From: Uloborus diversus | Lineage: Eukaryota | Assembly: GCF_026930045.1 (NCBI RefSeq) | Contig: NC_072740.1 | Span: 29,620,384 to 29,684,383 of the forward strand | Reading direction: 5' to 3' | Length of the DNA: 64,000 bases | Shown: one piece after another, positions 4,079 through 60,760 of the stretch | Layout of the letters: the number at the start of each line of letters is the position of its first letter | Position numbering within the stretch: position 1 is the first letter of the stretch | The notes under the pieces: generated by a model | Told to the model about the DNA's origin: nothing | The model's database searches: none | The model's input: the letters and a program-made list of their open reading frames with translations, nothing else | Made by a program: the position numbers and the translations under genes

Positions 4079-4852
4079 TGTTAGTCCTGATTTTAAATAT
4101 AATTTTTTAACAGTCTTAATTTAAGCATTTTCACCTTAACTTTCTTTTTAAATCAGTACTTTGATTGCTTTAAAATTTAAATAAGTTGCATACAAAATAA
4201 GTATACATAAAATTTTGCTGCTATTTTCATCTGTTATTTTGAAAAAAAGAAGAGGGAAATAGTGTGTGGGAAAATTTTCAAATGAATAACTTCATGTGTT
4301 TCTTAAACATCAAAAAGATCAGCAATATACCTCCAACTTTACAGCATATTTTTATCTGTTTTTCTTTCTTTGGAACATGTAATGAATGCATATTTTTTAA
4401 GGATGTCCAGTTTTAGAGTTACAATGAGAATCTTACTCTATTATGTTTGAATGTTTTAAGTATTTTATTATGCTATCACATTTGATAAAAGGTGCTTAAG
4501 TTACTTGCTAAGAAAGTAACAAAGTTAAAACTATTTTACATTAATACCAAGGTTTAGTTTTTTTTTTTTTTTTTTAGTGTATGGAAGGAATGATGATTTT
4601 ACTAACAATGTTAGCACATGCATTAATATTTGCTTTTAGAGGCAGAACAGAATTCCATTTGTTTGTTTCTTTGCTGACTCCGTCTTGCACTATGTCAGGT
4701 CTCTAAGTTTTAAACTTGTATTTATTCCAAAGTAATTGACTTTTTGTTTAACAAAGCCATCAAATAACATTCCAACAGTGCATTGTATCATGGTATAATT
4801 ATTTGTTGCTAATTATGCCTCAAAATTAATTCATCAAATTTTATGGAAACAG

Positions 4853-4995
4853 GTCATGTCATCTGTAAGGAGAACATTCCGTCTGAACAAATTTCTTGTG
4901 TTGCCAAAAATAGTAGCTATGCCACTGATAGAGTACTGTATTCTGATTGGTTTTACACATCTGTTATTGTTGGGATGGAATCTGGAAATATAATA
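4853..4995 (+). CDS. WD40-repeat gene exon (GHVICKENIPSEQISCVAKNSSYATDRVLYSDWFYTSVIVGMESGNII)
   Basis: Acceptor ggaaacag|GT and donor ATA|gtaagc. Phase 1 in, phase 0 out. No stop codons. Confidence 0.6.
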
Positions 4996-6239
4996 GTAAG
5001 CTGATGGTTTTTATTTTGAATTAAATTATTTGTTTTGTGTATTTTATTTTGTTTTAGGTAATTTTACTTAATCCTTTATTTTATTTCAATCCTATACTTA
5101 TTCTCCTATTCTTAAACATCTTATCTTTGTGCTTTTAAAATTGTCTGTATGAATTAAAGGGTGTTTTACGGAAGGAAGAACTAAAAGTGCAGAAATATGC
5201 TGGGGCACAGACCTATTCTTTAGTAACTGAAAACCTTGTTAGAAGCATTTTTTGAAAGACGGGAATGTGTTAATTTGCAATTACAAAACTTTCCAACCAG
5301 CAACAAATTTTTGCTACAACACATGGCTCAGACCAACTTATTCTGTAGTTCTCAAGAACAGCTCTCATAATTCACTTGCTAGTTTTGAGCAAAAATTATA
5401 AGCAGAATTCTGCTCACACATAATAGTGTTCATAACTACAGTTTTAGTAATGGAGATAGGATCAGATTTACAGGTGAAATGAAATTATATTAATATTTTG
5501 TTGCATTTTTCCAAGATAAATTTTGCATACTTTGTGTAAGAAGTGATTATAAGTTTTTGTGCCAAGACTGCACCTTCTTGAATTGATATGCTAGTCAGGA
5601 AAAATTGCCTTAGGCATTTAGGACATCATGGAATTCATCAGATTATTCATTTATTTAGCTTCAACGCATTAAATATCCCCATAACTCCTCTTTCTGCTGC
5701 TTGAAAAGGTTCAATTTTCTTCTTGCAGCATCTAACAGGAAACCTTCATCCATTCAAAAACTTATGAATGATTTGAAAACTGCATGGGAGCAGATCAGAA
5801 CCATAAAATGGGTTCACACTCCATCTTAATTGCATCTCTAATTGCCTATGTTTTGTTATATGTATTGGATGTAGCTGGTTTCCCAGATCCATTTTAAATT
5901 GAACCATGACCAGCACTGAACGTTGAGCACCATTCCACTACATGGAGTTTGGGCATACATACGTCTCTTGCATTTTTCATTTTCAGATCTAGTGGTTTTG
6001 TTCTTCAGCAGCTAGCCAAAATAAGTAAATAAATAAATAAAATAAGTATGATGATCCTTTTTGGGTACCTTTAGTAGGAAAGTTCACATAGGTAACGTTT
6101 CAGCGTTTTCAGCACACACTTTGGAAATAAGTAAATGCCATAATATTCTGATGCCTCATTTTCACTGCTTATATAGGTGCATTGAAGAATCATTGATGTG
6201 CACATTTGCTGCTACCACATTCCAAAAGGGAAAGCTTTT

Positions 6240-6432
6240 TAAAATCAAATACAAAGACCAGCAATAGGCTATGGGCCCAGCTAGACTGGTCCTAGTCAAT
6301 TTATTGGACCCCAACAAAGATCAATAGCCCTCTTAAAGCTATCCACACCCTTTCTCATTACTGCCTCTTCCAATAAGCAGTTCCAAGTGCCCACGAGCCT
6401 ACTAAAGTAGTAATTTTTCCTAATTTCCAGTT
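6240..6432 (-). mobile_element. short 3'-terminal fragment of the CR1-like LINE
   Basis: The reverse complement of the LINE tail and last codons runs from caataggctatgggcccagctagactggtcctagtcaatttattgg… through to …taatttttcctaatttccag. Confidence 0.7.
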
Positions 6433-7059
6433 ATATTCAAGTAAATATATTTTCAAAACTCATTTTTTCCGGCATGTTTATCCTGAAAAGAAACAGGCTT
6501 GTGTTATTGAAACCGGGTGACCCTATGAATTTTGCGGGGGGTATATTGTTTACAGTATATTGTTTTCAGTTTCAGTGTCCAATTGTGTTTTATAAGTTGT
6601 CAAAGGTATTTGAACATTTAATTTGTGTGAAGTGATAGATAGAAAGTTCTTTGAAAGATTTGTTGTGTCACTATCATTCAGAGCTGTTGTTGAAAAAGAA
6701 ATATTTATTGGGTTAATGCCATGGTTGGTGGATTTTTGTTAGTCAAAACAGGTCGTTTTTGATTGCATAGTCAGCTATAATTTAAAAAATGCGAATTTAC
6801 TTGTTTATTTATTTTTGAAAAAAGGATTCAAACCAATTTTCCTTTAATTTGCCTTATAAGAATAACTAACCAAATATTTTGGGCAACTGTGTTCCCCCAC
6901 ATTTCACCTTCCTCTACAACTACAGCACTGTTCTCAGTCTTAGTTTTTAAATCTGTAATAGGGTTGGGCGATATCAAAATTTAAATGCTGCGATATATCA
7001 CTTTCAAAATATCAATATTTTCAATATTTCGATATATTTAGGTCGATAAATTCAACGTT

Positions 7060-9460
7060 TTATGGGGGAGGGGGAGACTGCAAAGCCTATTATATAAGTA
7101 TCTGCAACAGAGAAAAGCTATAAGCCATCTTGGTGAATAAATATTTTAGCAATTTATTCTAATAATATAGCTACAGCAAGGATTCTCATGTGTTTGTGTC
7201 AGAGGGGGGGGGGGATTCTGAGGCAGATTATACCACAGAGAAACGTTTGGAGAAATTACTTGAAATTACTTTAGAAGAATTTCAGTCTTTTTATTAGTGG
7301 GTTGCAATTCTTGAGGGAAAAGGGGACTTGGTAAAATTGAGGGGTGCCTTCGCAGTCGGGGGAATGGGCACCCCTAGTTAAATCATCAGCATATTAAGAT
7401 ATACTACAGAAAAACACCATTGGATTTTTATCTTGAAAAGAAAATATTCCATCGGTTTATTTGAATAATAATAGCTAAAGCAGGTGTGCTCATTGGGGGG
7501 GGGGGGGCTGGATGCTTAGTATACAATTAAAATTATCAGAGAAGTTATTTTAAAAGGAGTTTAGTCTCTTCAATAAAAGGTCGCATTTTGGGGGAAGCAC
7601 GATAAATTTGAGGGGGGAGGGAGATTTATGTGAATAATAATAGCAATATATAAGAATAATAACAGCCCATGCAGGGGGAAGGGAAGTCATGACTCAGATA
7701 GTGTCATTAAATTTTTTACAGAAGGATTTTAATCCAATAAAAAGATGATGGCGTTTTTCTTTTGTTTGGGGGGGGGGGGGGGGTGATAAAATTGAGAGGA
7801 GCCACTGCACTTGGGGAGGGAAATTGGCACCCCAGCTACATTACATACATTATAAGATCTGCAATACAGAAAAGTCATCCAATATCTTGATAAGCAAATG
7901 TTCCAGCAATTTAGACAAATAATAATAATGCCTAGAGCAGGGTACCCATTCAGTGGGGGGGGGGGGGTCTTGAAGTTGACTATGCCATTGAAAATATCAG
8001 GGAGCTTATTTTAAAAGTATTTTAGTCTCCTAAGTAGGGACTCTTGTTTTTTGGGGGGGGGTCTGGGGAGCTTGGTAAAATTAAAAATAAGGGGTCCATC
8101 GCACTTAATGGGGATTGGTAGCCCTAGCATTTTGATCTATATATTAAGATCTGCAATAAAGAGATACCTACGAAAATGTTGAAATGTAAATATTTCAGCC
8201 AAGGGCGCCCATATGCAAAATTTTAAGGGGGTGGCTCAAAAATTTTCCCCATGGTTTAGCAGAATATTTTACCCATGGAAACCGATTTCAGTACAGATTA
8301 GAGATATTAAAGTTTGACATTTTCAATAACTTATTCATTAATGGCTGGAAAAGAAATTTTTATACATTTTTGCAAAGAAAAAAGCACTAAAAGCAAGGAA
8401 GTTCTCATTTCTAGGGGGGAGGGGCTTGAGACACCCTTGCTCCCCTATATGGGCACCCTTGATTCCAGCAATTTATTCTAATGATAAAGCTGGGGTGCCC
8501 ATTTGAATGGGAGGGGGGGGGGCATGAGGCTGACAATACCACTGAAACTATCAGAGGAGTTATTTTTAAAGGATTTTTGACTCTGCACTAGAATAGCCCG
8601 TTTTTTTCGGGGGAGGGGATAACGCTCAGTACAATTGAGGGGTGTCGTCGCAATTGGGGGGATGTGCTTCCCTAACCATATTATTTGTATATTGAGATCT
8701 GCAATAGAGAGAAGCCATCGGACATTTTGAAAGCTAAATACCAAAGTAGTTTTAATAATTGCTAAAGCAGAGATATGCCCATGGGGGGGGGGAGGGGGGC
8801 ATGAGGCAGACTCTGTTCCTGAAAGAATCAGAGAGGTCATTTCAAAAGAATTTAGCCTTTTTTTGAGGATCCCGTTTTTTTTGGGGGGGGGGGTTAGGTA
8901 AAAAAGGAGGGGGGGGGGTGGTACAATGCACTTGGGGAGAATTGGCACTCCTAGCTACATGATCTGCAGTAGAGCAAAGTCACCATAAATCTTGATCCGT
9001 AAATATTTCAGTAATTTATTCAAATAATAATAGCTGAAGTATATAGAAGTGCACTTCCTTGGGGAAGGGGGGGGGGGGAGGGCATGAGACAGACTTTACT
9101 ACTGAAATAATTAATGAAGGTTTTTTAAACAGATTTCAGTCTCTTTAATGAGATGTCATGTTTATTTTTTTTTGGGGGGGGGCGCTTTGTTTTAATTGAA
9201 GAGGTCATCTTTGGGAGGGGGGACTTGGACATATATCTATGCATATCAAGATCAAACAACGTCCCTCCCCCCACTCATGTGGTGAGGGGGGTCACAAGCA
9301 CAGACAAAATTGTTGAAATTTTACAAAGGGTACTTGAAAACTTTCAAGTCTTTGCGAAACAGTTCTCATTATTGGGGAATAACATTTTTGGGGGGATTAG
9401 GAAGATGCCATGTAAACTTTCAAGGGGAGGGGGGTAACATCCATACTTAAATCATCTGCC
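7060..9460. repeat. intronic satellite-like tandem array, ~8 units of ~285 bp, each with G-homopolymer tracts
   Basis: Anchors 'gcaatttattc.aataata.agc…gggggggg…gaggcagat…ttgaggggtg.c.tcgca.t.ggg' recur at ~7151, 7445, 7900, 8465, 8745 and 9005. Confidence 0.8.
8209..8465. mobile_element. ~255-bp MITE (hAT-like) inserted in one satellite unit; TIR CAAGGG(C/T)GCCCATAT; 8-bp TSD atttcagc/attccagc
   Basis: The left end 'caagggcgcccatatg' pairs with the right end 'catatgggcacccttg'. The flanks are ATTTCAGC and ATTCCAGC. A second family copy is at 62590-62890. The other satellite units lack the insert. Confidence 0.75.
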
Positions 9461-10661
9461 AATCAAAATTTTCTTCCTTTACTTAATTTGCAAAAACCAT
9501 ACAAGTTCAGAAATGCAAGTTTATTCTCGGTTTTCTACGGCAATCGATGTTTTACAGAGAACCGGAAATCCTAATATATGCTACCCCAATTCCGCAACCA
9601 ATGTTTGATAAGTCGAAAAACCCCAAGTACGTAAATGCATAGAACTTTCACAAAGAAACTTATGTACCTGCAAGCTAGAATTTGCATTCGTATAATCATT
9701 TCAACTCCAATTTTGTTTATGCATAGAACTTACACAAAAAACACTATATCTGCACATGCATAGAAACTGTCTGGCGACAACAGGGATATCGGGAGTTTCA
9801 GTTTCAATTTCGTACCGTGAGGGGTGCCGGAGATTAACGATTTAAAATTGGTATACATACTTGAATTACGTTTCAAGTGGTGCCGTGTGTTATGAATGAA
9901 GTCAATATTTTCCCCTCTTAATTTGGGACTTATAAGTTGTATTCGTTCAGCTTATGCGGTCCGAAAGGGATGAGTTGCACTCCCACTAGTGAGATAAATA
10001 TACGACAGAAGTATTCTCATTAGGTTTTTTTCATTTTCCATTTTTTTTAATACAAATATTTCTTTTCAGTATTTTTCACAAACTTTTATTCAGCGTAATA
10101 TCATTTTTCTTATGTTTAATTAAAATTATGAATCGTGTTGATACCTCAATTGGTTAATTTTTAATTGCTGCATTAAGATGCTTTTTTAATCAAATACGCA
10201 TTCACTTTTCAGGGCTCAGGAGAGGCCATATGAGCCTTGTCAGAAACTAGGGGCACAGTCCTTAGAAATGCCCCACTTTTGAAAACTTTATAGGGGGATG
10301 GGATCTGGAGACCAAACTGACAATGGGCCCACCTTGACCTTCGGCGGCCCTGTAATTTTCCCTTTTACTGTAATTAAATATTAAATTACTGATTGAAGAA
10401 TGCAGATAATTTCTTGAAATTTCAAACACTCAACCATCACACAGAACTATCAAAGATTATGTATTTTTGAGTTAGTATTTCAATTTGTCCGTAATTATGT
10501 CCCGTATTTCCGTCGATATGTCGGACGGATAGAAATCTAAATATTATTACCGCGGCAATAGATATATATTGATATATGACGATATATCGGCATATTGCAC
10601 AGTCCTAATCTGTAATATTGATGTTTATGACTGTTTCATTGATAAAATATACATGTTATAG

Positions 10662-11523: not shown

Positions 11524-14017
11524 GTAAGTTTATGTTGAATATGTGTACACAAAGAAATTTTTATTTTTGGTATATTTTTTTATACCTTCATTCTGATCAA
11601 AAGGCAAGTTTTTTCCCCCTAATGAAATTCTATTTCTAATTACTTTTCTTCTTAACAACCATTCATCTCAACTGTGAATACCCTAAGATAGATAAAACTA
11701 TTATTAAAAAATCATTTGATTCATTTCATGCATTAATTATGCAAAAAAATCCAGTTCGGATATAGTTTGTAACTGGACATACGATCTTTTGCTCCCATCT
11801 AGAGTGCATGAAACCTTATGCTGTTTCAGTAGCACCCATATGAATACAAAGTATATCAAATACTACACAAGCATTGAAATTTAATAACTCTTCGATTTTT
11901 GTAGTTCTTCTATGTGGAGGCGAAGCATGTTCGTAAAAATGAAAACAAACAAACAAAATCTTTTAGTTTTACTCTCAATTGCTGGTATTGAAGTGTAGAA
12001 AAGATTACATTTAAATTTCAATTAATAAACACATTAGGCTACCAACACTTAGATAATTTGTAACATATAAGCTTGTCTAAGAAAATAGACTATCAGCTAT
12101 CTCATAGTTGTTGGATTTGTTGACGCAGCCATAAATAGGGGTATTTGGGCTTATGAGAAGGTACCTGTAACTCAAAGCTGGCTCATTGGTACAAATTTAA
12201 TTATTTTTTCGTGTTTTTAAAGGTATTTTTTTTAAATTAGTTTTTAATGTTTTTATGATCACTTAGAAGTTCTAAGAAACTCTTGAAAACTATGAGATGT
12301 GATGCCAGCTTCTGAGACCCAAAATATGTTAGCAGCATTTACAATTAATGTGTGAAGAAGCTTTGATTAAAAATTTTCCTTTCAAGGGGGAAAATCACTT
12401 AGTAAATGCCCATTGCAAATAATTCTTATCTTTGTCTAGGTCTAATAACAATCTTTTATGTAAAAAAAAATCATGAAAGATCTGAAGAATAAAGCCTAAA
12501 TACAATTAGTTGGGGGGAAATAGTAACTATGAAATTTTTGCTGTTACATTAGCAAGTATTTTCAAAAATTCATTGCATGTAAATAGGAACAGAAATTTTC
12601 CTGAAAAATGTTTGTACAATGAAATGCAAGCTTTATTTTTGTATCAAAGCAAATAACCTTAAGTCATGACTGATTAATGTAGTTGAGAAAAGTGAAACCG
12701 ATTTATTCTGTAAGTGACCAATTCTGAACTTTACATTAATTGAAAGGTAGTTTATAAACTGTCAAGTAAAGTTCGAGGAGATCAAACGCCTTAAGAACTT
12801 ATATTGAGAGATATTTTTTAATGGAGTGTTTCCTCACAAAAACTTACAAAAAAAGTTTCAAAATGTGTTATTGCTAATTAATTTAGCTGTACTGATCATT
12901 AATTTTGCAAAACATCTAATACAATTGTGTGCTCTTATTGGAATATTGTTTAAAAGAATATCCTGCTTAATGAAATAAATTTTCAATGTCCGTAACCATT
13001 GTAATTAGAAATTTTGATCTTGGATAATGGAATATCCTGCGTATTAGAAAACCTATTTGTGACAAATTGACTATTTCATTAAGCGAGCTTGATTGTATTA
13101 TGTTTGTTGTACAAAAAAGTTACACAAGGCTTTAATTTTCATGCTATTCACTTTTCGCATTGTTCATTTTTCACTGAAGCGCCCCATGGATGCATTATAC
13201 TCTCCATTTAATAACTTATAACGATATTAAACGATATTAACGATATTTAATAACTTATAACGATATTAACTCTTGTGCATTTATAAATGTGTGCTGTTAA
13301 TAGATGCTTCTATGAATTTAAAAAGTATTTAAAATTAAATTTCTTTGCTTACTATGTGAAATGAATAAAAGTGAAAAAAATCACTGCCTTTTGGTAACAA
13401 AGTAACACTAGGGAACACAATATTAATAAAGCACAAATTGGTAACTGATTGCAAACACGTGTTTCAGGCTTTCAAGGAACCACTTTTTCAATGAAAAATT
13501 GAGCTTTTGCAAAAGCAGTTACCTGGAAAAAGCAACAAGGTGGAACAAACGATAGTTTAAGCAGTAAAAATTGGAGATTATCATAAAAAACCAAGGCAAG
13601 AAACCTAGAATCGAGCTTAATCACTGATTTCCACGTTTGTAATAAACTTTAACGCTGGGTTTCATTTTGTCTTGGCTGTTTTGTTAATCTCGAATATGTG
13701 ACGGTAATACTTTTAACTCTGAATATAGCATACGACAGAGTTGCTTGGGTGACAACATGATGTAAGAAAAACAGCCATTGAGTATTGTCCTATCATGATT
13801 GTCATCCCCCCCCCCTTTCGTTTCAAAATCCTTTTTTGTGCGGAGAATGTGTTTTAAATGTGCCATTCAACATTAGTTTATTGATGTTTCACTTATTCAT
13901 TCTTTTTTATTTTACTTGCCAAAAAAAAAAGTTATGATTGGAAATAAACCTCATTTTTTAATTGCACATAAAAATAAATTTATTTTGTCACTCTTAAAAC
14001 CTAGTATATTCTATTAG

Positions 14018-19700: not shown

Positions 19701-20424
19701 GTGTGCTATTTAATTAAATGAATAAAGTACAGTTTTTTGAATGATCTTTGTTTATATTAGGAAATGGGCGGAGAGGTTAAAATAAATAGAGACGGATAAA
19801 AAAAAATTTAGAGGTAGATAGCCACTGAAGGTGACAATTTTTGCGTAAAAAGAGGAATGACTCAAATTGCAACTGGAAATAGGTATAGAAAATACGAAAA
19901 AGAAAGATATATATATATCAATTAATTCCGCTGTCAAATTTGTTTAAACAGCCTCTGTAGACAGCAAACTTGGAATAAAAACGGGCGGGGGGGGGGGGGG
20001 GATTTTTTTAATTCAAAGGACTTCCTTTAAATTCTTAGCACGGGCATTGCTGTGCGGGTACTGCTAGTACAATGTATCACAAAAGTGACTGCATTCTCAA
20101 ATGTAATGCTTTTTTTTTTTTATTCCTTTCTAGTAAGAGCTCTAAAGTACCTTTTTCTTTAATTTCTGAAATAGCAAAGCTGTAGTATGGTTCTCCTGCG
20201 ATATTAAAATCCATTAAATATTCATTTCACATGTTGGAAGAAATTTTTAAGTTTTAATTTTTTTTTTTTAAAGAAAGAATCTCATAAATATGGGTAGCAA
20301 TTGTTGCAAACAGTGGAGGGTCAAAAACTACACAACTTCCGAGAATTGGTTGTGCAGTTTTCAGGCCTCAAAGAAACAAACCCAAAGCTATTTTTCTTAA
20401 AACTGGAAAACTTATGAAACAAAA

Positions 20425-21570
20425 GTTTATAATACAAATATGACGACCAGCAACAGGCTCTGGGCCCAACTAGGCTGGTCCTAGTCTGTTTATTAGTCTC
20501 CAATGAAGATCAATGGCCCTCTTAAAGCTATCCACCCCCATACTCATTACCGCCTCTTCCAGTAAGCTATTCCTAGTGCCCACGATCCTACTAAAGAAGT
20601 AATTTTTCCTAATTTCCAGGTTAGCCTGAGATTTGAATAGCTTAAAATAATGACCCTTCATACTGCTTTCTGTGCAAAAATTTAACCCGTTAATATCTTT
20701 CATTTTAATAAATTTAAACACCTGAATCATGTCCCTTCTGACTTTCCTTTGCTCCAGGCCATACATATTAAGCCTATTAAGTCTGTTATAGTCTAAATTT
20801 GAAATTCCCCCTTACTGGTCTAGTAACCCTTCTTTAAACAGTTTCCAATACAGAAATATCTTTCCTGAGGTAAGGAGACCAAAACTGAACAGCAAATTTC
20901 AAGTGATGTCTTACCAAAATCCTATATAAAGGCAGAAGAACGATTTATTCGAAATAGATCTATTGATAAACCCAAGCATTCTGTTGACTTTGTTACTTGC
21001 AATGCTGCGCAATTGACTAAGCTTGAAATCTTTATTAAGATCAATAACGTTTTTTGCCTGACTAATGACCGAACCCTGTAAATAAATAATAACTCATAGG
21101 CTTATTTCCATGACCTAAGTGTAGCACTTGGCATTTCCCTACATTAGCTGCTATACCCCACTTATCCACCCACTTAGTGATATGATCAAAATCCTCTTAA
21201 AGCTGTTTTACATGTTCCTCATTTTCTACTATCCCCATAACTTAACATCATCAGCATAACAATTCATGTTTCCAGAAATATTATCATCAATGTCATTCAT
21301 AAAATTAGTAAACAAAAGAGGCCCTAAAACTGATCCCTGAGCAACCCTGCTTAAAATGTCACTCCGTTTAGAATGATTTTCCCTCACAACTACTGTTTGT
21401 TTTCTTCCAGTCAGTCAATTCCTAACCCAAAGTAAAGTTTTCCAACTTTACTTTACTGTAATGTCAATCCAAATTTACTTTATTATAGTATTTACTATAA
21501 TCAAAACATTCTTCATGCTATTACGCTTTAAAGTTTCAAATCCAAAAGTAATAAGTGTTCCAGAAGTAAC
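20425..21570 (-). mobile_element. truncated, degenerate CR1-like LINE copy (3' part), left arm of an inverted pair
   Basis: The reverse-complement 3' tail is at 20441-20520. The 98-aa ORF 20470-20766 matches the RT C-terminus. The sequence is colinear with the RT region up to ~21570. Confidence 0.75.
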
Positions 21571-22239
21571 CATTGTCATGAGGAGAAAATAACAGTAATA
21601 AACGTCATTAAAAAAATGCTTTTTCATTTATTTTTTATTTATTTCTTATTTAAGATCTTTCTTTTCAATTTAAATGGCAAAAATCATTCACATTCAGCTT
21701 TTCCATGCAGAATTCTTTGATATGTGTGCTTAATTTTTGTGTTTCTTTGAAGCCGTGAAAAAAAGAGGAAATTTCTAACTTTGATTTTTTAAGGGCAAAG
21801 GGAAAAATAAAGTATTTTTCTGATGAAGTACTCTCTATTCTATTGTAAAAAAATACTTTTGATCAAATGAATAAGTAAACTTAATGATGAATGAGCAAAT
21901 GGGAAGATAATGAAACAATAAACGAATAATTAGATTAATTAATTAATATACCATTTATTTTATGATATATTAATTAATTAATCTAATTTATTATCTCATT
22001 AATATTTCATTTATTTTTCCTCATGTATTAATTAACTAATTATTTATTTGTTAGTTTATTGTTTCTTTACCTTTTCATTTATTTTTATATACTTTTATTT
22101 GCTCATTAATTCGTTCAAAAAATTTTTTTACAATCAAATAGAAAGTATTTCATTTGAAAGATGCTTTATAAAGATATATATATATATATATCAATTTATT
22201 CCTCTGTCAAATTTGTTTAAACAGCCTCTGTAGACAGCG

Positions 22240-22880
22240 AACTTCTGGAACACTTATTATTTTTGGATTTGAAACTTTAAAGCGTAATAGCATGAAGAAT
22301 GTTTTGATTATAGTAAATACTATAATAAAGTAAATTTGGATTTACATTACAGTAAAGTAAAGTTGGAAAACTTTACTTTGGGTTAGGAATTGACTGACTG
22401 GAAGAAAACAAACAGTAGTTGTGAGGGGAAATCATTCTAAACGGAGTGACGTTTTAAGCAGGGTTGCTCAGGGATCAGTTTTAGGGCCTCTTTTGTTTAT
22501 TATTTTTATGAATGACATCAATGAAAATATTTCTGGAAGCATGAACTGTTTTGCTGCTGATGTAAAAGTCATGGGATTGTTGAAAATGAAGAACAAGTAA
22601 AACAGCTTCAAGAGGATTTAGATCATATTACTAAGTGGGTGGATAAGTGGGGTATAGCAGTTAATGTAGGGAAATGCCAAGTGCTACACTTAGGTCATGG
22701 AAATAAGCCTATGAGTTATTATTTATTTACAGGGTTCGGTCATTAGTCAGGCAAAAAACGTTATTGATCTTAATAAATCAGGATTTCAAGCTTAGTCAAC
22801 TGTGCAGCATTGCAAGTAACAAAGTCAACAGAATGCTTGGGTTTATCAATAGATCTATTTCGAATAAATCGTTCTTCTAA
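22240..22880 (+). mobile_element. truncated degenerate CR1-like LINE RT fragment, right arm of the inverted pair
   Basis: The forward sequence …caggatcagttttagggcctcttttgtttatt… is the reverse complement of 20860-21570. It encodes the RT motifs in + orientation and includes a frameshift. Confidence 0.75.
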
Positions 22881-23329
22881 GAATTTAAAGGAAGTCCTTT
22901 GAATTAAAAAAATCCCCCCCCCCCCCGCCCATTTTTTATGCCAAGTTCGCTGTCTACAGAGGCTGTTTAAACAAATTTGACAGCGGAATTAATTGATGTA
23001 TATATATATCTTTATTTTTACTTTGCCCCATAAAAAAAAGTGAACATTTTCCACTTTTTTTTTGAATTAACAATTTTCTGCCAAAATAAAAAAATAATGT
23101 TTCAATGTAAGTTTTATTATGAAATACAATGTTCTTTCTTTATGCACTGCAATTTTCAAAACAAATTTCCTATTTGTACATTTTGAAAAAGCTCTGTCAT
23201 CTTAACTATTTCACTTTGCCCCACATTCCCCTACATCAGCAGATGCATCAAGAAATAGGACTCATAATAAAAATATGAGCTGACCTCAGGCATAACATTT
23301 TGATGCCATATATGATCTAGCTGTTTATA

Positions 23330-24400
23330 CAGATACAATACAAATACAAAAGTGACGACCAGCAACAGGCTCTGGGCCCAGCTAGACTGGTCCTAGTCAA
23401 TTTACAATCCCCAGTGAAGATCAATGGCCCTCTTAAAACTATCTACTCCCTTGCTCATTACCACCTCTTCCGGTAAACTGTTCCAAGGTTCCACTACCCT
23501 GCTATAATAATAATTTTTCCTAATATCCATGTTAGCCTGAGATTTAAATAGCTTAAAACAATGACCTCTTGTCCCGTTTTCAGTGCATCAGTGCTAAACT
23601 TCAGCCCTGTAACATCTTTCATTTTAATAAATTTAAACAACTGAATCATGTCCCCTCGGTCTCTTCTTTGCTCAAGACTGTACATTTTTAACCTTCTAAG
23701 CCTGGAATCATAGTCTAAGTGAGAAAGTCCATTTATTAGCCTTGTAGCCCGCCTTTGAACCCTTTCCAATACATTAATGTCTTTCTTAAGATAAGGAGAC
23801 CAAAACTGAACAGCATACTCCAAATGAGGTCTTACCAAACTTCTATATAAGGGCAGAAGAACTTCTTTAGATTTGTTTGAAATAGATCTATTGATAAACC
23901 CAAGCATCTTATTGGCCTTGTTACTAGTAGTGCTGCACTGTTGGCTAAACTTTAAATCCTGACTTATTAAGACCCCCAGATCAGTAACTTTGTCTGCCTG
24001 ACTAATGACTGAACCTTGCAAATAATAACTTGTACACTTATTTCCATGCCCTAAATGTAGCACTTGACATTTCCCAACATTAACAGACATACCCCATTTA
24101 TCAGCCCACTCCGTAATATGATCTAGATCCTCTTGCAGCTGTTTTGCTTGTTCTTCATTATCTACAGTCCCCATAACTTTGACATCATCAGCAAAACAAT
24201 TCATGTTCCCAGAAATATTTTTGTGAATATCGTTCATAAAAACAATGAACAAAACAGGCCCTAACACTGATCCTTGAGGAACCCCGCTTAAAACCTCACT
24301 CCAATTAGAATAATATCCCCTCACTACTACCCTTTGTTTCCTACGTTTGAGGTCATTAGTTTGTTTGCCAGCATAATTTTCATATTTCCCCAATTATTTT
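23330..24400 (-). mobile_element. 5'-truncated copy of the same CR1-like LINE (RT C-terminal region plus 3' tail)
   Basis: The 299-aa minus-strand ORF 23494-24393 is near-identical to the RT segment 48463-49599 (…NCFADDVKVMG…). The reverse-complement tail sits at 23335-23420. Confidence 0.85.
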
Positions 24401-25871: not shown

Positions 25872-26159
25872 AAATCATTTTGGTATTCACTTCATGGGCA
25901 CAGCAAAGGTATCACATCTTGCTGCTTAGATGACTCAGGTGAAATTTTATCGTGTTCTCTTGATGGGACTGTTAATCTGTGGAAAACACCATTTTCTGCT
26001 CCTGGCAATTCTCTCATTCATGCAACAGCTATTACAAGTGTTTTATTTTCTTCTGAATGTGACGTAATTCTGAGTTCTGATACTGAAGGGAACGTAGTTT
26101 TATGGAAAGTGTCTTTATCTTCTAAGGGCTACCATCTCATATATGTTACTAAAAAAACT
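25872..26159 (+). CDS. WD40-repeat gene exon (…LHGHSKGITSCCLDDSGEILSCSLDGTVNLWK…SSDTEGNVVLWKVS…)
   Basis: Acceptor ttttttag|AAA and donor ACT|gtaagt. The 96-codon open frame holds two clear WD repeats (GH…DG.V.LW; D.EGNVVLW). Confidence 0.7.
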
Positions 26160-26469
26160 GTAAGTTATTAAAATATAACTTATGTTTGGATTTTCAAAAA
26201 TTTGAATTGGTTAAATTTACTGTTTATAGCACATTTACATGCTGTTTTTTACTTGTATGTGTGATGAAAAAAAAGAGAAAAAAAATTTCGGCCTATTAAG
26301 GAGCTTGGAACCCTCTGAAAAAAAAATATATTTTTTAATTATATGATATTTACTTGCCTCTTGTACTTACTCATTCCTACATTATTAAAGATTATTAGAG
26401 AACAAAACAATTTTCACATGAAAAACAAAAAATATTCAATGCAACATTTTGTAATAAGATTTTATTTTT

Positions 26470-45072: not shown

Positions 45073-45511
45073 ACGATTCAGAATGTTCTCACTTTTGAAA
45101 TATTGCTCTACTCGTAAATGGTACAACATGTTATTAATTTTGAGACACATTCATCACATATATACAATACTGCTATAATTTTCTTACATCGACAGTATTC
45201 TCATTTAGCATAGTGCTTTTACTTAAAATTATAATTTTCATAAAGAACTCTTGAACTTATTGAGATTTACTTGCTTTTTTAAAGTGTTTTTCTATTCTGT
45301 GTAGCTAAGCCTAAATTGTGCTGATTTCTTGTTGTTAAGCCTGAGTGCTCTGTTTAGGGTGTAACTTGTTTATTTTAATTTACTGCTTGTCTTAGGATTT
45401 AGTAATATTTGTATCTTTTACTTCCAATGCTTTCTAATTCTAATAATTAGCATTATTTCTCCAATTTTGTATTTTTGTATTGACTTTTTAAGTGTACCAT
45501 TTTGAGCTAGA

Positions 45512-45970
45512 ATGGGAGTTATACGCATAATGAAGGAGGTTAAAAGTGGTAAAGGGGACAAGTGGATTTCTTGTGACCTATGTCAGATGTTCTGCTTGTT
45601 TAAGGGAAAGGATGAGTCTGAGAAGGATTTCATTTGCACAAATTGTGTTGAACTCTCAGAAATCAGAGTTAGGATGCTTACTTTGGAGGGTGAGTTAGCA
45701 TTAGGCTGTATGCGTGTAGATGGGGTAAACACTCCAGAGGGAAAGGGGGAAGTTAGCAAAAAGGATGTTGGCATTAGCTGTGTGTTAGATAGTGGGAATA
45801 TTCCAGAATTAAAGGAGGAAGTTAGTAAAAAGGATGTGGGCATTAGCTGTGTGTTAGATAGTGGGAAAATTCCAGAGGTAAAGGGGAAAGTTATTGCTGA
45901 GGCGATTGACTGGGAAACAAAGGGTATAATTTTCGGAGATTCAATGGTGCGTGAGGTGGAAACTCAATAG
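45512..45970 (+). CDS. LINE ORF1 N-terminal part: PHD/zinc-finger-like Cys cluster plus internal 60-nt tandem duplication (EVSKKDVGISCVLDSG×2)
   Basis: The ORF track translation reads WISCDLCQMFC…FICTNCVEL. A direct repeat lies at 45745-45800 and 45805-45860. Confidence 0.6.
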   Translation: MGVIRIMKEVKSGKGDKWISCDLCQMFCLFKGKDESEKDFICTNCVELSEIRVRMLTLEGELALGCMRVDGVNTPEGKGEVSKKDVGISCVLDSGNIPELKEEVSKKDVGISCVLDSGKIPEVKGKVIAEAIDWETKGIIFGDSMVREVETQ

Positions 45971-45987
45971 GCAGAGTTAGACGTAAG

Positions 45988-46416
45988 GTGGCTAGATGTT
46001 GTTTGCCAGGGGCTCGGGTGAGAGATGTAAAAAGGGTTGCTGAAAAGAAGGGGGTATTTAATAAAGAGGATGTAGTTACTTTGTGGGTGGGAACTAACGA
46101 TGTAGGCCATAGTAACAACGATGAGTTTACAAAGGAATGGGATTCCCTGTTGGACAAAGCAACCAACTGTTCGGCAAATGTCCAAGTGGTTGGTTTGCTT
46201 CCCAGGTATGGAGTGCATAGGAGTTGGTTAAACCAACGGGCTAGGTGTATGAACCTGGTACTCAAGGAAATTTGCGTTAAGCGTAGAATCAGGTTTATTG
46301 ATGTGTGGAGTAAATGTAAACGAGATTGGATTGCTAGGGATGGCCTGCATCTGAGTTCTACAGGGGTCAAAATGGTTAGTGGTTTGGTTTTAGAGGCTTC
46401 AGAATCAAAAAACTAA
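45988..46416 (+). CDS. LINE ORF1 esterase (SGNH hydrolase-like) domain, frameshifted relative to the upstream part
   Basis: The LWVGTNDV block and an NRRARCMN…DGLHLS-type C-terminus match esterase domains described for CR1-like ORF1 proteins. Confidence 0.6.
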   Translation: MARCCLPGARVRDVKRVAEKKGVFNKEDVVTLWVGTNDVGHSNNDEFTKEWDSLLDKATNCSANVQVVGLLPRYGVHRSWLNQRARCMNLVLKEICVKRRIRFIDVWSKCKRDWIARDGLHLSSTGVKMVSGLVLEASESKN

Positions 46417-46475
46417 GTTGGAATGGGGGACATGGTTTAAGGAGCAGAATTCGAAAGGGTACTAACTATTGGGAT

Positions 46476-47756
46476 TTGAGTAGAAACAGAAATAGGGTGT
46501 CCAATAAGAGTAAAGATTTTAACAGCTGGGATTCAAACAATCGTGCAGCATTAAATAAAAGTAAGATGGGCTTACTTAAGGTTTTTTATACAAATGCTCG
46601 TAGTATTAGGAACAAGATGGAAGAATTGAAAAGCATAATTATAGACGAGAGGTTGGATATTATTGGAGTTACCGAGACATGGGCTACCGAAAGTGATGAT
46701 GATTTATTATCTATTGCTGGGTATAATTTGTTTAGACAAGATAGAGTAGGTAAAAGAGGTGGTGGGGTTTTATTTTATGTCAGAGACACTTTAATTTGCA
46801 ATGAATTGGTAATTAATGATAAACCTAATGAGATTGATATGATTTGGCTGGAGTTGATTAGTAATAAGGGCAAAAAACTACGTTTAGGGAATATTTATAG
46901 GCCACCCAACTTAAGCCAGGGTGAAGACGAACAGATGTTTAGTATTATTAGTGACATTTCTAGCAAGGGGTCAGTCTTCATAATGGGAGATTTTAATTTT
47001 CCAGGAATTGATTGGAATAATTTTGACCGTAGTAATAGCAGAGAAGAGGAATTTTTGAAAGTAATTGGTGACTGTTTCTTAGATCAAATTGTAACTCAGG
47101 GTACTCAACAGGACGCGATTTTGGATCTAGTTTTCTGTGACATGGAAGGCTCTGTTCAGGGGTTATGTGTAGGGGAACACATTGGAGATAGTGACCACAA
47201 CAGTATTAGGTTTGGGATTAAATTTGATATGCACAAAGTAGAGAATTTTAGGTTTGTGCCCAATTTCAGAAATACTGACTTTGTGGCACTTCGGCAGAGT
47301 TTGAAAGCAGTTTTTTCTTCTGGATTGGACAATAGCGATGTGAATCTTCAGTGGGCAGAGTTTAAGGAAAATCTAGCGAATACGGTTAGAGATCATGTTC
47401 CTTTTAGGAGAAAAGGTGTCAACACTAAAATTTGGCCAATGTGGTTCTCCAGGGAAACTAAAGACGCTCTAAATTACAAGCAAGCTGCTTTTCATAGGTT
47501 TAGAGAAACAGGTCACAGTGCAGATAGGCTCCAGTATTGTAAGGCAACGCGTAAATTTAAGTATTTGGTACGGATTCAGAAAAGAGAGTTGGAGCAAAGA
47601 CTGGCAGATAACATAAACAGGAATCCCATGAGGTTTTTTGCATACACTAATTCGGGGAAAGTTCGAAATAGTCATATTGGGCCACTGGTTGATGAGCACG
47701 GAATTTTGATTCAGGACGATAGTGATATTGCTAATGTTCTTAATAACTTTTTTTGA
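46476..47756 (+). CDS. LINE ORF2 apurinic-like endonuclease domain plus linker (pseudogene fragment)
   Basis: A 426-aa ORF contains the EN motifs (IIGVTETW, GDFNFP, DSDHNSI). Confidence 0.75.
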   Translation: MSRNRNRVSNKSKDFNSWDSNNRAALNKSKMGLLKVFYTNARSIRNKMEELKSIIIDERLDIIGVTETWATESDDDLLSIAGYNLFRQDRVGKRGGGVLFYVRDTLICNELVINDKPNEIDMIWLELISNKGKKLRLGNIYRPPNLSQGEDEQMFSIISDISSKGSVFIMGDFNFPGIDWNNFDRSNSREEEFLKVIGDCFLDQIVTQGTQQDAILDLVFCDMEGSVQGLCVGEHIGDSDHNSIRFGIKFDMHKVENFRFVPNFRNTDFVALRQSLKAVFSSGLDNSDVNLQWAEFKENLANTVRDHVPFRRKGVNTKIWPMWFSRETKDALNYKQAAFHRFRETGHSADRLQYCKATRKFKYLVRIQKRELEQRLADNINRNPMRFFAYTNSGKVRNSHIGPLVDEHGILIQDDSDIANVLNNFF

Positions 47757-48245
47757 GTGTTTTTAACGATAACTGTATCTCAACAGTTGACACCAACAAG
47801 GCACAAGCTATAGTACAGCTTGAGGACTTTGTATTTTCCAGGGATGACGTTTTACTTCATTTGAAAAAAATTAAAGAGACTAAGGCTCCGGGGCCAGATA
47901 ATATTTATCCGAAAATTTTAGTTGAATGTGCAGAGGAATTAGCAGATGTAATCGCAAACATTTTCAATGCTTCTTATAATTCGGGGACAGTGCCAGAGGA
48001 CTGGAAGCTGGCTAACATTACACCGCTCTTCAAGAAAGGGTCTAAAGGGAGTGTGGGAAATTATAGACCTGTGAGTCTAACTTCGGTGGTTTGCAAAATT
48101 TTTGAAACATAGATGAAAATTAAGATAGTAAATTTTCTAGAGACTAATAATCTATTGACTAGTTTTCAGTACGGTTTCAGGAAAGGTAAATCTTGTGCAA
48201 CTAATTTATTACATTTCTATGACAAAGTTACCAGTGGCGTAGCTA
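47753..48245 (+). pseudogene. LINE ORF2 reverse-transcriptase N-terminal segment, truncated by the MITE insertion
   Basis: The frame …PGPDNIYPKIL…NYRPVSLTSVVCKIFE…FQYGFRKGKSCATNLLHFYDKVT then runs into the inserted element. Confidence 0.7.
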
Positions 48246-48278
48246 GACCCGACTTTCGGGGGGGGGGGGGGGGTTACT

Positions 48279-48360
<82 letters not shown>

Positions 48361-48494
48361 AATCGCTTGGAATTTTTTCCTTTTCTTCTTTTTTTTCCCT
48401 TTCTCTTCTCTCTTCTTTTTCTCTTTTTTTTTTGAGACTAACTTTTCGGGGGGGGGGGGGGTTTGTCCCCAAAACCCCCCCCCCCCCCCCCCTT
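48246..48494. mobile_element. ~250-bp non-autonomous TIR element (MITE-like) inserted into the LINE RT; carries (AT)n(GT)n and poly-G tracts; flanked by a ~10-bp TSD aaagttacca
   Basis: The left end 'cagtggcgtagctagacccgactttcgggggg…' pairs with the right end '…cccccccttagctacgcccctg' as an imperfect TIR. A direct repeat AAAGTTACCA lies at 48231-48240 and 48495-48504. The RT motif FYDKVT|TALD is continuous once the insert is removed. Confidence 0.75.
48286..48360. repeat. compound microsatellite (AT)~28(GT)~10 inside the inserted MITE
   Basis: Direct reading of the sequence. Confidence 0.95.
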
Positions 48495-49599
48495 AGCTAC
48501 GCCCCTGAAAGTTACCACGGCTTTGGACAATAAGAAGCCTGTAGATGTTGTTTACATTGATTTTCAAAAAGCTTTCGATAAGGTACCGCATGTTGCTCTA
48601 CTTAGCAAATTAGCTGATATGGGAATAGGAGGGAAAACTTTCATTTGGGTAAAAAACTGGCTGACCGGAAGGAAACAAAGAGTAGTTGTAAGGGGAAATT
48701 ATTCTAATTGGAGTGAGGTCTTAAGCGGCGTTCCTCAAGGATCAGTGTTAGGGCCTGTTTTGTTCATTGTCTTTATGAACGATATTCACAAAAATATTTC
48801 TGGGAACATGAATTGTTTTGCTGATGATGTCAAACTTATGGGGACTGTAGAAAATGAAGAACAAGCAAATCAGCTGCAAGAGGATCTAGATCATATTACA
48901 GAGTGGGCTGATAAATGGGGTATGGCTGTTAATGTTGGGAAATGTCAAGTGCTACATTTAGGGCATGGAAATAAGTGTACAAGTTATTATTTGCAAGGTT
49001 CAGTCATTAGTCAGGCAGACAAAGTTACTGATCTGGAGGTCTTAATAAGTCAGGATTTAAAGTTTAGCCAACAGTGCAGCATTGCTAGCAACAAAGCCAA
49101 TAAGATGCTTGGGTTTATCAATAGATCTATTTCAAATAAATCTAAAGAAGTTCTGCCCTTATATAGAAGTTTGGTAAGACCCCATTTGGAGTATGCTGTT
49201 CAGTTTTGGTCTCCTTATCTTAAGAAAGACATTAATGTATTGGAAAGGGTTCAAAGGCGGGCTACAAGGCTAATAAGTGGACTTTCCCACTTAGATTATG
49301 ATTCCAGGCTTAGAAGGCTAAAAATGTACAGTCTTGAGCAAAGAAGAGACCGAGGGGACATGATTCAACTGTTTATATTTATTAAAACGAAAGATGTTAC
49401 GGGGCTAAAGTTTAGCACTGAAAACAGGACAAGGGGTCATTGTTTTAAGCTATTTAAATCTCAGGCTAACATGGATATTACGAAAAATTATTATTTTAGC
49501 AGGGTAGTGGAACCTTGGAACAGCTTACCGGAAGAGGTGGTAATGAGCAAAGGAGTAGACAGTTTTAAGAGGGCCATTGATCTTCACTGGGGATTGTAA
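48495..49599 (+). pseudogene. LINE ORF2 reverse-transcriptase core/C-terminal segment (resumes after the insertion)
   Basis: …TTALDNKKPVDVVYIDFQKAFDKVPH…NCFADDVKLMG…; the stop codon is at 49599. Confidence 0.75.
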
Positions 49600-57287: not shown

Positions 57288-57880
57288 GATAAAGTGAATG
57301 AGCCGCTTTAATGAATTAAATCTCCGAAAACAAAATGGAATCCAGCTTTAACATTAAAAAACTGTCGAATGATTGAATCAAACACGCCGCTTAAATGAAT
57401 CAAGAGTATCTGAGTAACCATTTTCCAGAAACATGTTGTGCATCAGCGCAGTCTTTTTTTCTGTGCCTTCATTTAGAAAAGTGAGCCTTTTCTTTTGTGT
57501 GTGTGTGTGCATGTGTTTTCCCCCTTTTTTTGCAAGCAGTGAAAAGAAGGGGTTCAGAGCATCTGCTCCCATATGCAGTGGCGGATAAAGTGAATGAGCC
57601 GCTTTAATGAATTAAATCTCCGAAAACAAAATGGAATCCAGCTTTAACATTAAAAAACTGTCGAATGATTGAATCAAACACGCCGCTTAAATGAATCAAG
57701 AGTATCTGAGTAACCATTTTCCAGAAACATGTTGTGCATCAGCGCAGTCTTTTTTTCTGTGCCTTCATTTAGAAAAGTGAGCCTTTTCTTTTGTGTGTGT
57801 GTGTGCATGTGTTTTCCCCCTTTTTTTGCAAGCAGTGAAAAGAAGGGGTTCAGAGCATCTGCTCCCATATGCAGTGGCGG
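57288..57880. repeat. perfect tandem duplication of a ~297-bp unit containing a (GT)n microsatellite
   Basis: 57288-57584 and 57585-57880 are identical by eye. The ORF-track peptides 57378-57572 and 57674-57928 are also identical. Confidence 0.9.
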
Positions 57881-57960
57881 ATTGGTTGAAAAAATCGGCC
57901 CTGGCATTAAGAGATGTAGCGGCCCCATAGCTCTTATAGATTAGTAGGGTGGCATATTAC

Positions 57961-59413: not shown

Positions 59414-59959
59414 TCCTTAAGTACGCAACTGGACTAAGATATTAAATTTTACCTAACGATTGGGATATCACTTAAATATGAGGAAATTATTCTTAACAAC
59501 TGAATTTGTTGTATTTAAACAAAATTTAACAGATAGGAACGCTTCTGCGCTTTATTGGTGAACAAATTGATACAGTATTAGCTAAACAATAATTTGGAGA
59601 AAATTGTGATTGTAATTGTCCATTTAAGTATTTTTATAACGCCCGGAACTTGATTGATTATTTTTGTAATGATAACACTGCTTGGCCAGTATGTCCTATT
59701 CTGCAGTTATAATAAGTAACTTAATTGCTCTGTTTTATGAAACTGATCTAGCGATGTTCATTACTGAGCCCTGTCATAAACATTCCCTTTTTTATACTGC
59801 CATACCCTGACGACCCCCAGACTCGATGCGAGGTCAAAAACATGGTGGTAGGGGTCGGGTACGAGTTTGGCAGCTCCTTATTTATTTATTTATTTTTTTC
59901 AAACGCATGTATCAATACAAAGAGATAGAGTGGACTTAGCTTTCTGGCTTGTAGGAGAC

Positions 59960-60760
59960 ATTAAAGTATTAACATTGAATCTGAAGGGGGGGGGGGGTCC
60001 TTTTCCTCGGAAATTTTTTGAAATTGCAGTCTTAAAAACTCAATTTTAGACAGTATTTGGGGATGTTAGGGGAGCGTAGGTTCAGGGTTTCTCCTGCTGC
60101 AATTTTTCGGAATTAAGAAATCCAAAAACAGAATTTTAAATTATCTTCGAGTATATGGTATAAAGAGCGATTCCGGGGAATCTCCTCTGAAATTTTTTAA
60201 AAAAATATTAGCTCTGAAAACGCAGTTTTAGAAGATCTTTGGTGATTTTAAGTCGAGATAGTTCCGAGGCCATCCACCAGAAAATTTTCAAATTTAAGTC
60301 TTAAAAGCCTTTTTTGGTAAAGACTAGGGTTAGACAGTTACTCGAAAGTTAAGTTTCAAAAACGAAATTTTTGCTTACCTTCAGTGATATTAGGAAAAGG
60401 AGTTTTCAGGAGGCTCACCCCGGAAAATTTTCGAAATTAAAGAACTAAAAACAAGACTTAAAACGTTCTTCACTGATGATGCCGGAGAGAGAGGAGGGAA
60501 CGGGGCACTTTCCCAGAAAATCTTTGATACTGTTAATTTAAAAACACAGTTTTAGACCATCTTTGGGAATGTTAAAAAAGCGGGAGAGGTTCGAGTACTT
60601 TCCTCCAGCAAATTTTCGAAGCTTTAATTCCATATTATGGCGGGAGTGGATTCGGCTGTTCTCTTATGAAGTTATTCAAAATTAAAGCCAAAAAATTTAA
60701 ATTTTACACGATCTTCGATGATATTAGGAGGAGGGGGGGGGGGGGGAGGTTCTGGGGACA
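59960..60760. repeat. degenerate minisatellite, ~7 units of ~110-120 bp (…ggaaaattttcgaaatt.aag…aaaac…atttta.a..atcttcg.tgat.ttagg…)
   Basis: The motif 'aattttc(g/a)aa…ttaa…ttta…atctt…gat…tagg…gg' recurs every ~115 bp. G-runs are at 59986 and 60728. Confidence 0.6.

Follow-up and report, generated by a model that had tools for sequence, protein, structure and literature searches.

Does the G-rich repeated tract inside an intron of a predicted WD40-repeat gene of Uloborus diversus represent a satellite that happened to be struck by a transposon, as the original prediction had it, or are the repeats themselves built from transposon ends? We have considered this question for a 64,000-nucleotide stretch of contig NC_072740.1 (positions 29,620,384 to 29,684,383 of the forward strand; the whole stretch is hereafter called the window, and all coordinates are given within it). 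The window is eukaryotic DNA with a GC content of 32.9%, and it contains CR1-like long interspersed nuclear element (LINE) fragments together with many small elements bounded by terminal inverted repeats (TIRs). The account that we favour, and hold with moderate confidence, is that the locus consists of nested, non-coding DNA-transposon debris within an intron, ordinary in kind and without sign of present function. It would comprise a decayed tandem array whose units carry the end motif of a MITE (miniature inverted-repeat transposable element), a younger MITE inserted into one of these units, and a larger transposon that probably encloses both.

The tandem array and the inserted MITE

The tandem organisation is evident from a blastn self-comparison of 7040-9470, which returned 17 off-diagonal alignments, all on the same strand (67-84% identity, E down to 1e-22), and no minus-strand alignment. 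The offsets were 277, 283 and 292, then 455, 543-562 and larger. A nhmmer profile built from three units recovered the remaining ones, with unit E-values ranging from 1e-76 to 8e-4. The tandem units of about 285 bp with poly-G that had been described from the sequence are indeed present, as seven to eight head-to-tail copies (Table 1), among which U2a and U2b together amount to two units minus about 140 bp spanning their junction. When the insert and the second copy of its target are set aside, the array is 2,113 bp long; its GC content is 40%, vs 33% for the window, and its GC skew is +0.30. Tandem Repeats Finder (TRF), which had been proposed as the check for 6.9-9.5 kb, made no call at 7060-9460, either by default or with a minimum score of 30, despite the real periodicity; the program misses the array because the units are less than 70% identical and differ by indels.

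Global alignments of unit pairs give 55-69% identity, and adjacent units are no closer to each other than distant ones. No further copy of the unit was found elsewhere in the window by profile or similarity search. Among the features expected of a satellite, head-to-tail monomers are present, whereas the high identity within an array that results from concerted evolution is absent. Since unit identity is low and homogenisation is lacking, the label 'satellite' appears too strong for what seems to be one old array of seven to eight units, with no second array in the window.

Unit U4 is split by an insertion of 262 bp, hereafter MITE-A. The insertion is real, as had been claimed, but its limits, first placed at 8209-8465 (255 bp), are corrected here. 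Its TIRs (CAAGGGCGCCCATAT and ATATGGGCACCCTTG) are 15 nt long and complementary at 14 of 15 positions. In sister intact units the octamer that flanks the insert occurs once and in the same register (ATTTTAGC, GTTCCAGC, ATTTCAGT), no other unit contains the insert, and at profile positions 45-51 both parts of U4 overlap, as expected of a target site duplication (TSD). Both the 8-bp TSD and the single ATT(T/C)CAGC anticipated for uninterrupted units are borne out by the unit alignment. Counted together, the TIR and TSD of MITE-A differ from their own counterparts at 2 of 23 positions. The element has a GC content of 38.5% and no meaningful open reading frame (ORF) or other coding capacity.

hAT elements reportedly have TIRs of about 10-25 bp that begin with 5'-YARNG, and the CAAGG start of MITE-A fits this form. 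Their target consensus is nTnnnnAn, a weak preference; against this consensus, the TSD ATTTCAGC has T at position 2 and G at position 7. Duplications of 8 bp can also be made by P, Merlin, Novosib and Zisupton elements. Judged by its 8-bp TSD and its short YARNG TIRs, MITE-A is still best guessed to be a hAT element, as initially proposed, in the sense of membership by structure alone. Queries of 25 and 20 nt from the MITE against metagenomes returned nothing, or chance AT-rich 20-mers only, and no papers turned up when the literature was searched for the TIR strings.

A second copy of MITE-A had been announced at 62590-62890, and a diverged copy is found there within somewhat narrower limits. 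It lies outside any array, which indicates that the family is mobile. Its outermost TIR bases are unrecognisable at 62614 because another element (57872-62613) has landed within the left TIR. The first 16 nt of this copy are probably those at 57856-57871 (CATCTGCTCCCATATG), which match the TIR of the first copy at 12 of 16 positions, in line with the overall divergence.

Table 1. Features of the array locus and of its host intron, with the second MITE-A copy (window coordinates).
Feature	Coordinates	Strand	Remarks
Host intron of the WD40-repeat gene (predicted)	4996-10661	+	5,666 bp; donor TA/GTAAGC at 4996, acceptor TTATAG/ ending at 10661
Left TSD of element D	6951-6958		ATCTGTAA; 8/8 identical to 10608-10615
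Element D, non-autonomous hAT-like transposon enclosing the array (probable)	6959-10607	+	3,649 bp
Left end of element D	6959-7057	+	CGATAT at 6969, 6991, 7030
Tandem array, decayed	7058-9440	+	7-8 units of 265-297 bp; blastn self-match, nhmmer, unit alignment
U0, unit fragment	7058-7099	+	42 nt
U1	7100-7396	+	G11 at 7204; sole unit with intact hairpin, 7340-7376
Exact TIR core, U1, right arm	7364-7373	-	GGGTGCCCAT
U2a	7397-7624	+	breaks off at profile position 200, with G13 at 7495
U2b	7625-7856	+	begins at profile position 54; G16 at 7768
One-mismatch TIR core, U2b, right arm	7823-7832	-	GGGTGCCAAT; in register with 7364-7373
U3	7857-8148	+	G13 at 7955, G9 at 8053
One-mismatch TIR core, U3, left arm	7940-7949	+	GGGTACCCAT; in register with 8493-8502
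U4, 5' part	8149-8199	+	profile positions 1-51; terminates in the TSD copy ATTTCAGC, 8192-8199
Left TSD copy of MITE-A	8192-8199		ATTTCAGC
MITE-A, hAT-like non-autonomous element	8200-8461	+	262 bp; TIRs 8200-8214 and 8447-8461
Second TSD copy of MITE-A	8462-8469		ATTCCAGC; 7/8 identical to 8192-8199
U4, 3' part	8470-8696	+	G10 at 8513; nhmmer match 8463-8680 at profile positions 45-271
Exact TIR core, U4, left arm	8493-8502	+	GGGTGCCCAT
U5	8697-8961	+	G10 at 8783, G11 at 8883, G10 at 8909
U6	8962-9244	+	G12 at 9067, G9 at 9174
U7, degenerate final unit	9245-~9440	+	nhmmer match 9281-9433, E 8e-4
Right end of element D	10508-10607	+	CGATAT/ATATCG at 10514, 10580, 10584
Right TSD of element D	10608-10615		ATCTGTAA
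Second MITE-A copy, diverged	62614-62882	+	76.5% identical; left TIR split by nested element

End motifs of the MITE and of the array units

Array and insertion had been presented as independent of each other, a picture that does not survive a comparison of their ends. The 10-nt core of the MITE-A TIR, GGGYGCCCAT, has four exact matches in the window against 0.08 expected, and these are both TIRs of MITE-A itself, one site in U1 and one in U4. With one mismatch allowed, two further copies appear in U2b and U3, in register with the exact ones (Table 1), and the remaining match is a palindromic overlap within the left TIR of MITE-A (8201-8210); at this stringency no copy was found in the window outside the array and the insert. 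When the full 15-mer was searched with up to three edits, two of the four non-self matches fell inside the array. The unit alignment places the core copies as an inverted pair at two fixed positions of the unit, about 165-190 bp apart, with the consensus GCAGGGGTGCCCATT followed by G run 1 for the left arm and AAT(T/G)GGCACCCCTAG for the right arm. The likeness extends beyond the TIR. MITE-A has the layout of the unit, namely TIR, short AT spacer, G run and C(T)TGAG, and the units, like both G runs of MITE-A, show the module formed by a G run with C(A/T)TGAG after it, which is missing from all of the 19 other long G/C runs of the window. Based on these motifs we propose, at moderate confidence, the following make-up for the ancestral unit of 285 bp: a MITE-like cassette of about 190 bp, belonging to the TIR family of MITE-A and with CTRGGGGTGCCCATT as its expected TIR, plus about 95 bp. 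The octamer TAGCTA(A/C)A flanks the cassette on both sides and may be an old TSD of the cassette, which is only suggestive.

An independent intronic satellite, unrelated to transposons and hit by an unrelated hAT-like MITE, would of course also present a real array with a real insertion in it, and the interior of the MITE indeed has no robust homology to the unit. Such a coincidence is nevertheless unlikely given the confinement, within the window, of the TIR core (at most one mismatch) to the array as an inverted pair at fixed positions, the G-run and CWTGAG module that MITE and units have in common, the lack of homogenisation between units, and the TSD, TIRs and rare-hexamer clusters that bracket the array (see below). 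One could also go to the opposite extreme and see in the 'array' a series of adjacent, independent insertions of one mobile element of about 285 bp, with no tandem duplication at all. The TIR-like pairs in the units and the TAGCTA(A/C)A octamer on both sides of the cassette would suit this idea, but the spacer of about 95 bp is repeated in register in every unit, there are no TSDs between units, and a single head-to-tail orientation across eight copies would be unexpected; we find it hardly credible.

The probable enclosing element and a proposed nested history

The TIR element of 3.65 kb with a perfect 8-bp TSD that probably surrounds the array had been missed. This element, designated D, is made up of a left end of 99 bp, the 2.4-kb array and 1.17 kb (1,167 bp) of unique sequence that includes the right end. 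Its termini, TAGGGTTGGGC... and ...GCACAGTCCTA, match at 8 of 11 positions, with TAGG/CCTA perfect (the pair may be written TAGGGTTGGGC/TAGGACTGTGC, with a TAGGG terminus), and the degenerate 11-mer TAGGRYTGKGC occurs in the window only at these two ends, in inverted orientation. The TSD fits both fixed positions of the hAT target consensus given above. Particularly telling is the distribution of CGATAT/ATATCG, since the outermost 100 nt at each end of D hold three copies, which makes six of the 30 in the window, vs 0.09 expected (P ~1e-9). The regions just inside the ends align with each other in inverted orientation (p ~0.018), and five of the six occurrences of GGGGTGCC/GGCACCCC in the window are within D. 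Element D contains no ORF longer than 55 amino acids and no Pfam domains. On account of its 8-bp TSD, its TAGGG terminus, the repeats near both ends and the lack of an ORF, D appears to have the anatomy of a non-autonomous hAT-like element, and the enclosure of the array in it is probable, the CGATAT clusters being the decisive support.

Several observations weigh against this nested account. Compared with the interior of the unit, that of the MITE scores 6 bits with nhmmer, and Smith-Waterman alignment, significant when the G run is kept, gives p ~0.0015 for the first copy and no significance for the second once the run is removed. As the interiors are not convincingly homologous, the link between MITE and unit rests on a motif of about 10-15 nt at the ends and on the G-run module, which is short. 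For the left arm, the best match (U4, 8490-8504) lies 21 nt from the TSD of MITE-A, and U4 is without the AAAGCA of other units. No autonomous partner with an ORF for a hAT transposase, as marked by a BED finger, a DDE and a hAT dimerisation domain, was found in the window, and the superfamily is read from TSD length and TIR form only. As for D, its TIRs are imperfect (8/11), the window holds no second copy of it, and combinations of a TSD with 8/11 TIRs arise by chance about 12.7 times per shuffled window. The chance of finding one of them around the array, inside these flanks, is estimated arithmetically at about 0.02-0.03.

Other clusters of CGATAT/ATATCG are seen in a 20-bp tandem repeat (13206-13267) and in the palindromic GGCGATATATCGCC at 61189-61235. 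These clusters at 13.2 and 61.2 kb might be ends of relatives of D; no TAGG terminus adjoins them, and no member of the D-end family was recovered there.

Helitrons and Helentrons are marked by a 3' hairpin followed by CTRR, by a 5' TC and by the absence of a TSD. A hairpin of some kind also exists in the array: the unit alignment reveals, in the ancestral unit, a palindrome near the unit junction that is followed by CTAG, with no conserved TC after it. The hairpin is intact in one of the five units tested, U1 (fold -12.1 kcal/mol, z -3.6), and its loop measures 17-20 nt. This raises the idea that the array formed the central tandem-repeat module within a composite mobile element as known from bivalves or insects, either a MITE resembling pearl and DTC84 or a non-autonomous Helentron/Helitron such as Cg_HINE. 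Elements of this sort spread short satellite-like arrays when they transpose, possibly by a rolling circle, and the TIR-like motifs would then be incidental palindromes. In favour of this idea, unique modules flank the array within a bounded element, the unit palindrome and the CTAG after it are arranged as in the core repeats of DTC84 (PMC3879986) and are reminiscent of Helitron 3' ends, and a weak 8-nt microrepeat in four copies lies just upstream (7002-7035). The bounding element, however, has an 8-bp TSD and TAGG.../...CCTA TIRs, whereas the AA/TT targets and the hairpin-plus-CTRR end of pearl and Helentron are not found, the loop is large, the hairpin is kept in a single unit, and no TC is conserved after CTAG. 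We consequently regard the idea as doubtful, and a Helitron proper was rejected, given the loop size, the TSD and the missing 5' TC.

In the way it works, the locus is like these systems. DTC84 of Donax trunculus and the oyster elements pearl and CvA are non-autonomous TIR elements in which flanking modules serve as a cassette for central tandem core repeats. DTC84 itself has at most five such repeats; its array has a microsatellite at one end, and the duplicated target is putatively AA (PMC3879986). Like them, the array studied here had a palindrome in each ancestral repeat, intact now only in U1. It differs in its larger units, about eight in number, in the 8-bp TSD, in the lack of a clear microsatellite module and in the TIR-like motifs of another MITE family borne by its units. 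Neither the AA target nor the microsatellite module typical of DTC84 and pearl was found, the sole candidate for the latter being the weak microrepeat just mentioned. In Crassostrea gigas, Cg_HINE are non-autonomous Helentron elements with central repeats resembling satellite DNA (PMC7492417). They resemble the present locus as non-autonomous, euchromatic DNA transposons with a short satellite-like array as central module; unlike the bounding element with TIRs and an 8-bp TSD seen here, Helentrons are rolling-circle elements and make no such duplication.

The history that we propose begins with a MITE-like cassette of about 190 bp, which would have carried the end motif (C)TRGGGGTGCCCATT as an inverted pair and, beside the left arm, a poly-G run followed by CATGAG. 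This cassette, with about 95 bp of adjoining sequence, would then have been amplified head-to-tail to at least eight units of about 285 bp. While the head-to-tail structure itself is directly visible, its cause can only be proposed; unequal exchange or replication slippage is likeliest, and alternative transposition driven by a transposase less likely. The array probably forms the interior of D, either carried by it or grown within it, and the insertion of D into the intron would have created the TSD ATCTGTAA. The last step is shown by the sequence: once unit identity had fallen to 55-69%, a MITE of 262 bp that carries the same TIR core entered the fourth unit by cut-and-paste and duplicated its target ATTTCAGC. 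The relative ages, with the array units older and the insertion of MITE-A younger, follow from differences in identity: the units diverge at about 37% of sites (Jukes-Cantor distance ~0.5), the two MITE copies at about 23.5% (~0.28), and the TIR and TSD of the insert itself at the 2 of 23 positions given above.

It is tempting to see more than debris in the array, which might have been made by a hAT transposase acting on neighbouring ends, or might have lured the younger MITE through its roughly 16 sites resembling transposase-binding sites, as a tether or landing pad in a homing-like manner. We consider this a long shot. If it were true, poly-G MITE families would be the main means by which sense-strand tracts prone to form G-quadruplexes (G4) are dispersed into introns here.

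In all its layers the locus belongs to known kinds of nested transposon debris and is not a new kind of element. MITEs have been classed as hAT by an 8-bp TSD before, for instance BniHAT-1/2 of Brassica nigra (PMC7385995). With such non-autonomous hAT elements (Ds, BniHAT-1/2, Mar of Drosophila), MITE-A and D have in common the 8-bp TSD and short TIRs starting YARNG (15 nt and CAAGG in MITE-A, TAGGG in D). They are likewise small, AT-rich and non-coding, D having in addition repeated short motifs near its ends. They differ in that both are assigned by structure only and in that the TSD of MITE-A fits one of the two fixed target positions. Tandem arrays derived from MITEs are also known, as in the passage from the Xmix MITE to Xstir in Xenopus laevis and in miDNA4 of X. 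tropicalis (reviewed in PMC9659126). There, as here, the monomer contains a terminal sequence of a MITE, and in the proposed model it is born in or from the MITE before being amplified in tandem; those repeats, however, are abundant and homogenised throughout the genome, whereas a single old, unhomogenised array is present in our 64 kb. Tetris, a foldback transposon of Drosophila virilis (PMC4079207), similarly provides the internal or terminal tandem repeats of a transposon as building blocks of arrays. Its repeats lie within long TIRs and are the source of an abundant satellite, neither of which is the case here.

The locus is of little importance beyond annotation. It offers a clean and dated nesting in three layers, with a younger MITE inside the internal tandem array of a probable hAT-like carrier, itself inside an intron, and illustrates how MITE ends give rise to tandem repeats by a route already known. 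A further lesson is that diverged arrays escape TRF and that a 'satellite hit by a MITE' needs to be checked for common TIR motifs and for an enclosing element.

G runs, host intron and other repeats of the window

Eleven of the 30 runs of at least nine G or C in the window lie within the array, which makes up 3.7% of the window (binomial P 5e-9). All eleven read G on the + strand, which is sense for the intron, and their lengths range from G9 to G16. Poly-G is accordingly present as stated earlier, but not uniformly as two or three G8-G14 tracts per unit: we find one to three runs of G9-G16 in each unit, plus shorter interrupted tracts, at two or three fixed unit positions. At a G4Hunter threshold of 1.5 or more, 16 of the 44 segments of the window fall here, always on the G strand (14 in the array proper and 2 in the insert), an enrichment of about 10-fold. 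Canonical G4 motifs (four G3+ tracts, N1-7) occur in the array at 7768-7783 and 9061-9082 only. The proposed G4-forming potential is partly borne out by these predictions, being real by G4Hunter and canonical at two sites only.

G run 1 (7204-9078) is pure and at least 10 nt long in six of seven units, while columns outside the run are about 23% off the consensus. A simple substitution model gives a probability of about 0.1-0.17 per unit for such purity, so that the run is purer than decay predicts. We attribute this purity to the slippage dynamics of homopolymers and not to selection. The placing of poly-G next to TIRs is a general trait of MITEs in the window, on both strands, and is not peculiar to the array; the same habit is seen in unrelated MITE copies across the window. 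For instance, a hAT-like MITE of 276 bp at 48232-48507 (TIRs CAGTGGCGTAGCTA / CAGGGGCGTAGCTA, perfect 8-bp TSD AAAGTTAC) contains G16, (TA)28, G14 and C18, and so has poly-G beside its TIR in another family. We know of no description of poly-G runs beside the TIR as a hAT hallmark. As part of the account that we favour, and with no more than the confidence given to the whole, the poly-G tracts would be an ancestral feature of the unit and a habit common to several MITE families, and G4-prone sequence on the sense strand a by-product. The poly-G habit of several MITE families could explain the origin of the long G/C homopolymers of this genome, a point relevant to G4 maps, sequencing-error hotspots and repeat libraries.

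Could the G-run array instead be an element under selection, either a G4/R-loop module or a regulator of splicing or transcription of the WD40 gene? The sense-strand bias of the G runs, the enrichment of G4Hunter segments and the purity of G run 1 despite about 23% divergence per site would be in keeping with a function. Yet only two canonical motifs exist, no run comes within 2 kb of the 5' splice site or within 1.2 kb of the 3' splice site, poly-G is found on both strands in unrelated MITE copies, and homopolymer slippage alone can keep runs pure while the surrounding unit decays freely. Signals of function are also wanting in the array, with no Rfam families, no ORFs with Pfam domains and a hairpin kept in one of five units. 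A conserved hairpin or structured RNA was rejected, as a good fold is limited to U1 and the Rfam search, at E up to 1, gave no families save two sub-threshold chance matches. A selected role is, in our judgement, very improbable.

The placing of the array in an intron of about 5.6 kb of a WD40 gene is upheld by the predicted gene structure. The exons that end at 4995 and start at 10662 on the + strand join in frame (...GMESGNII/VWNFFSS), and the join restores the end of a WD repeat. Pfam WD40 matches are found on + strand exons (690-1016 and 25872-26168), also on the concatenated exons, and are weak in between. No relatives of the WD40 exon were found in a set of 5.8 billion proteins. The exon candidate 4813-4995 contains, in its open frame, a one-mismatch copy of the TIR CAGTGGCGTAGCTA (4914-4927, - strand), and the 5' part of this candidate may therefore be transposon-derived or not exonic. 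At the other side of the intron, the last base of D is 54 nt upstream of the exon, which places the branch-point and polypyrimidine region (10608-10661) directly beside transposon sequence.

Elements with 8-bp TSDs are not restricted to the array. The 276-bp MITE at 48232-48507 breaks the reverse transcriptase (RT) ORF of a CR1-like LINE, and the 4.7-kb element nested in the second MITE-A copy (57872-62613) has TIRs CAGTGGCGGAT that match at 11 of 11 positions and a TSD, CCCATATG, at 57864-57871 and 62614-62621; no Pfam-recognisable ORF was found in it. These two cases indicate that hAT-type transposition has been repeatedly active in this genome. The junction between the 4.7-kb element and its flank is spanned by a 296-bp unit present in exactly 2.0 copies with 100% identity (57288-57882); either the duplication happened very recently or it is an artefact of the assembly.

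At 19897-24393 lies a complex in which fragments of CR1-like LINEs are duplicated in direct and in inverted orientation, including an inverted repeat of 537 nt with 95% complementarity (21031-21567 / 22241-22777) and inverted arms of 112 nt with G15/C13 (19897-20008 / 22906-23017). A near full-length CR1-like LINE at 45506-49596 comprises an ORF1 with a GDSL-esterase domain (45955-46413), an AP endonuclease at 46380-47753 and, at 48508-49596, an RT. In the databases this RT reaches at best 59% identity, to a Logan contig without DNA similarity to the window. Within the limits of the same LINE, a 69-bp tandem repeat in 2.3 copies is found at 45733-45893.

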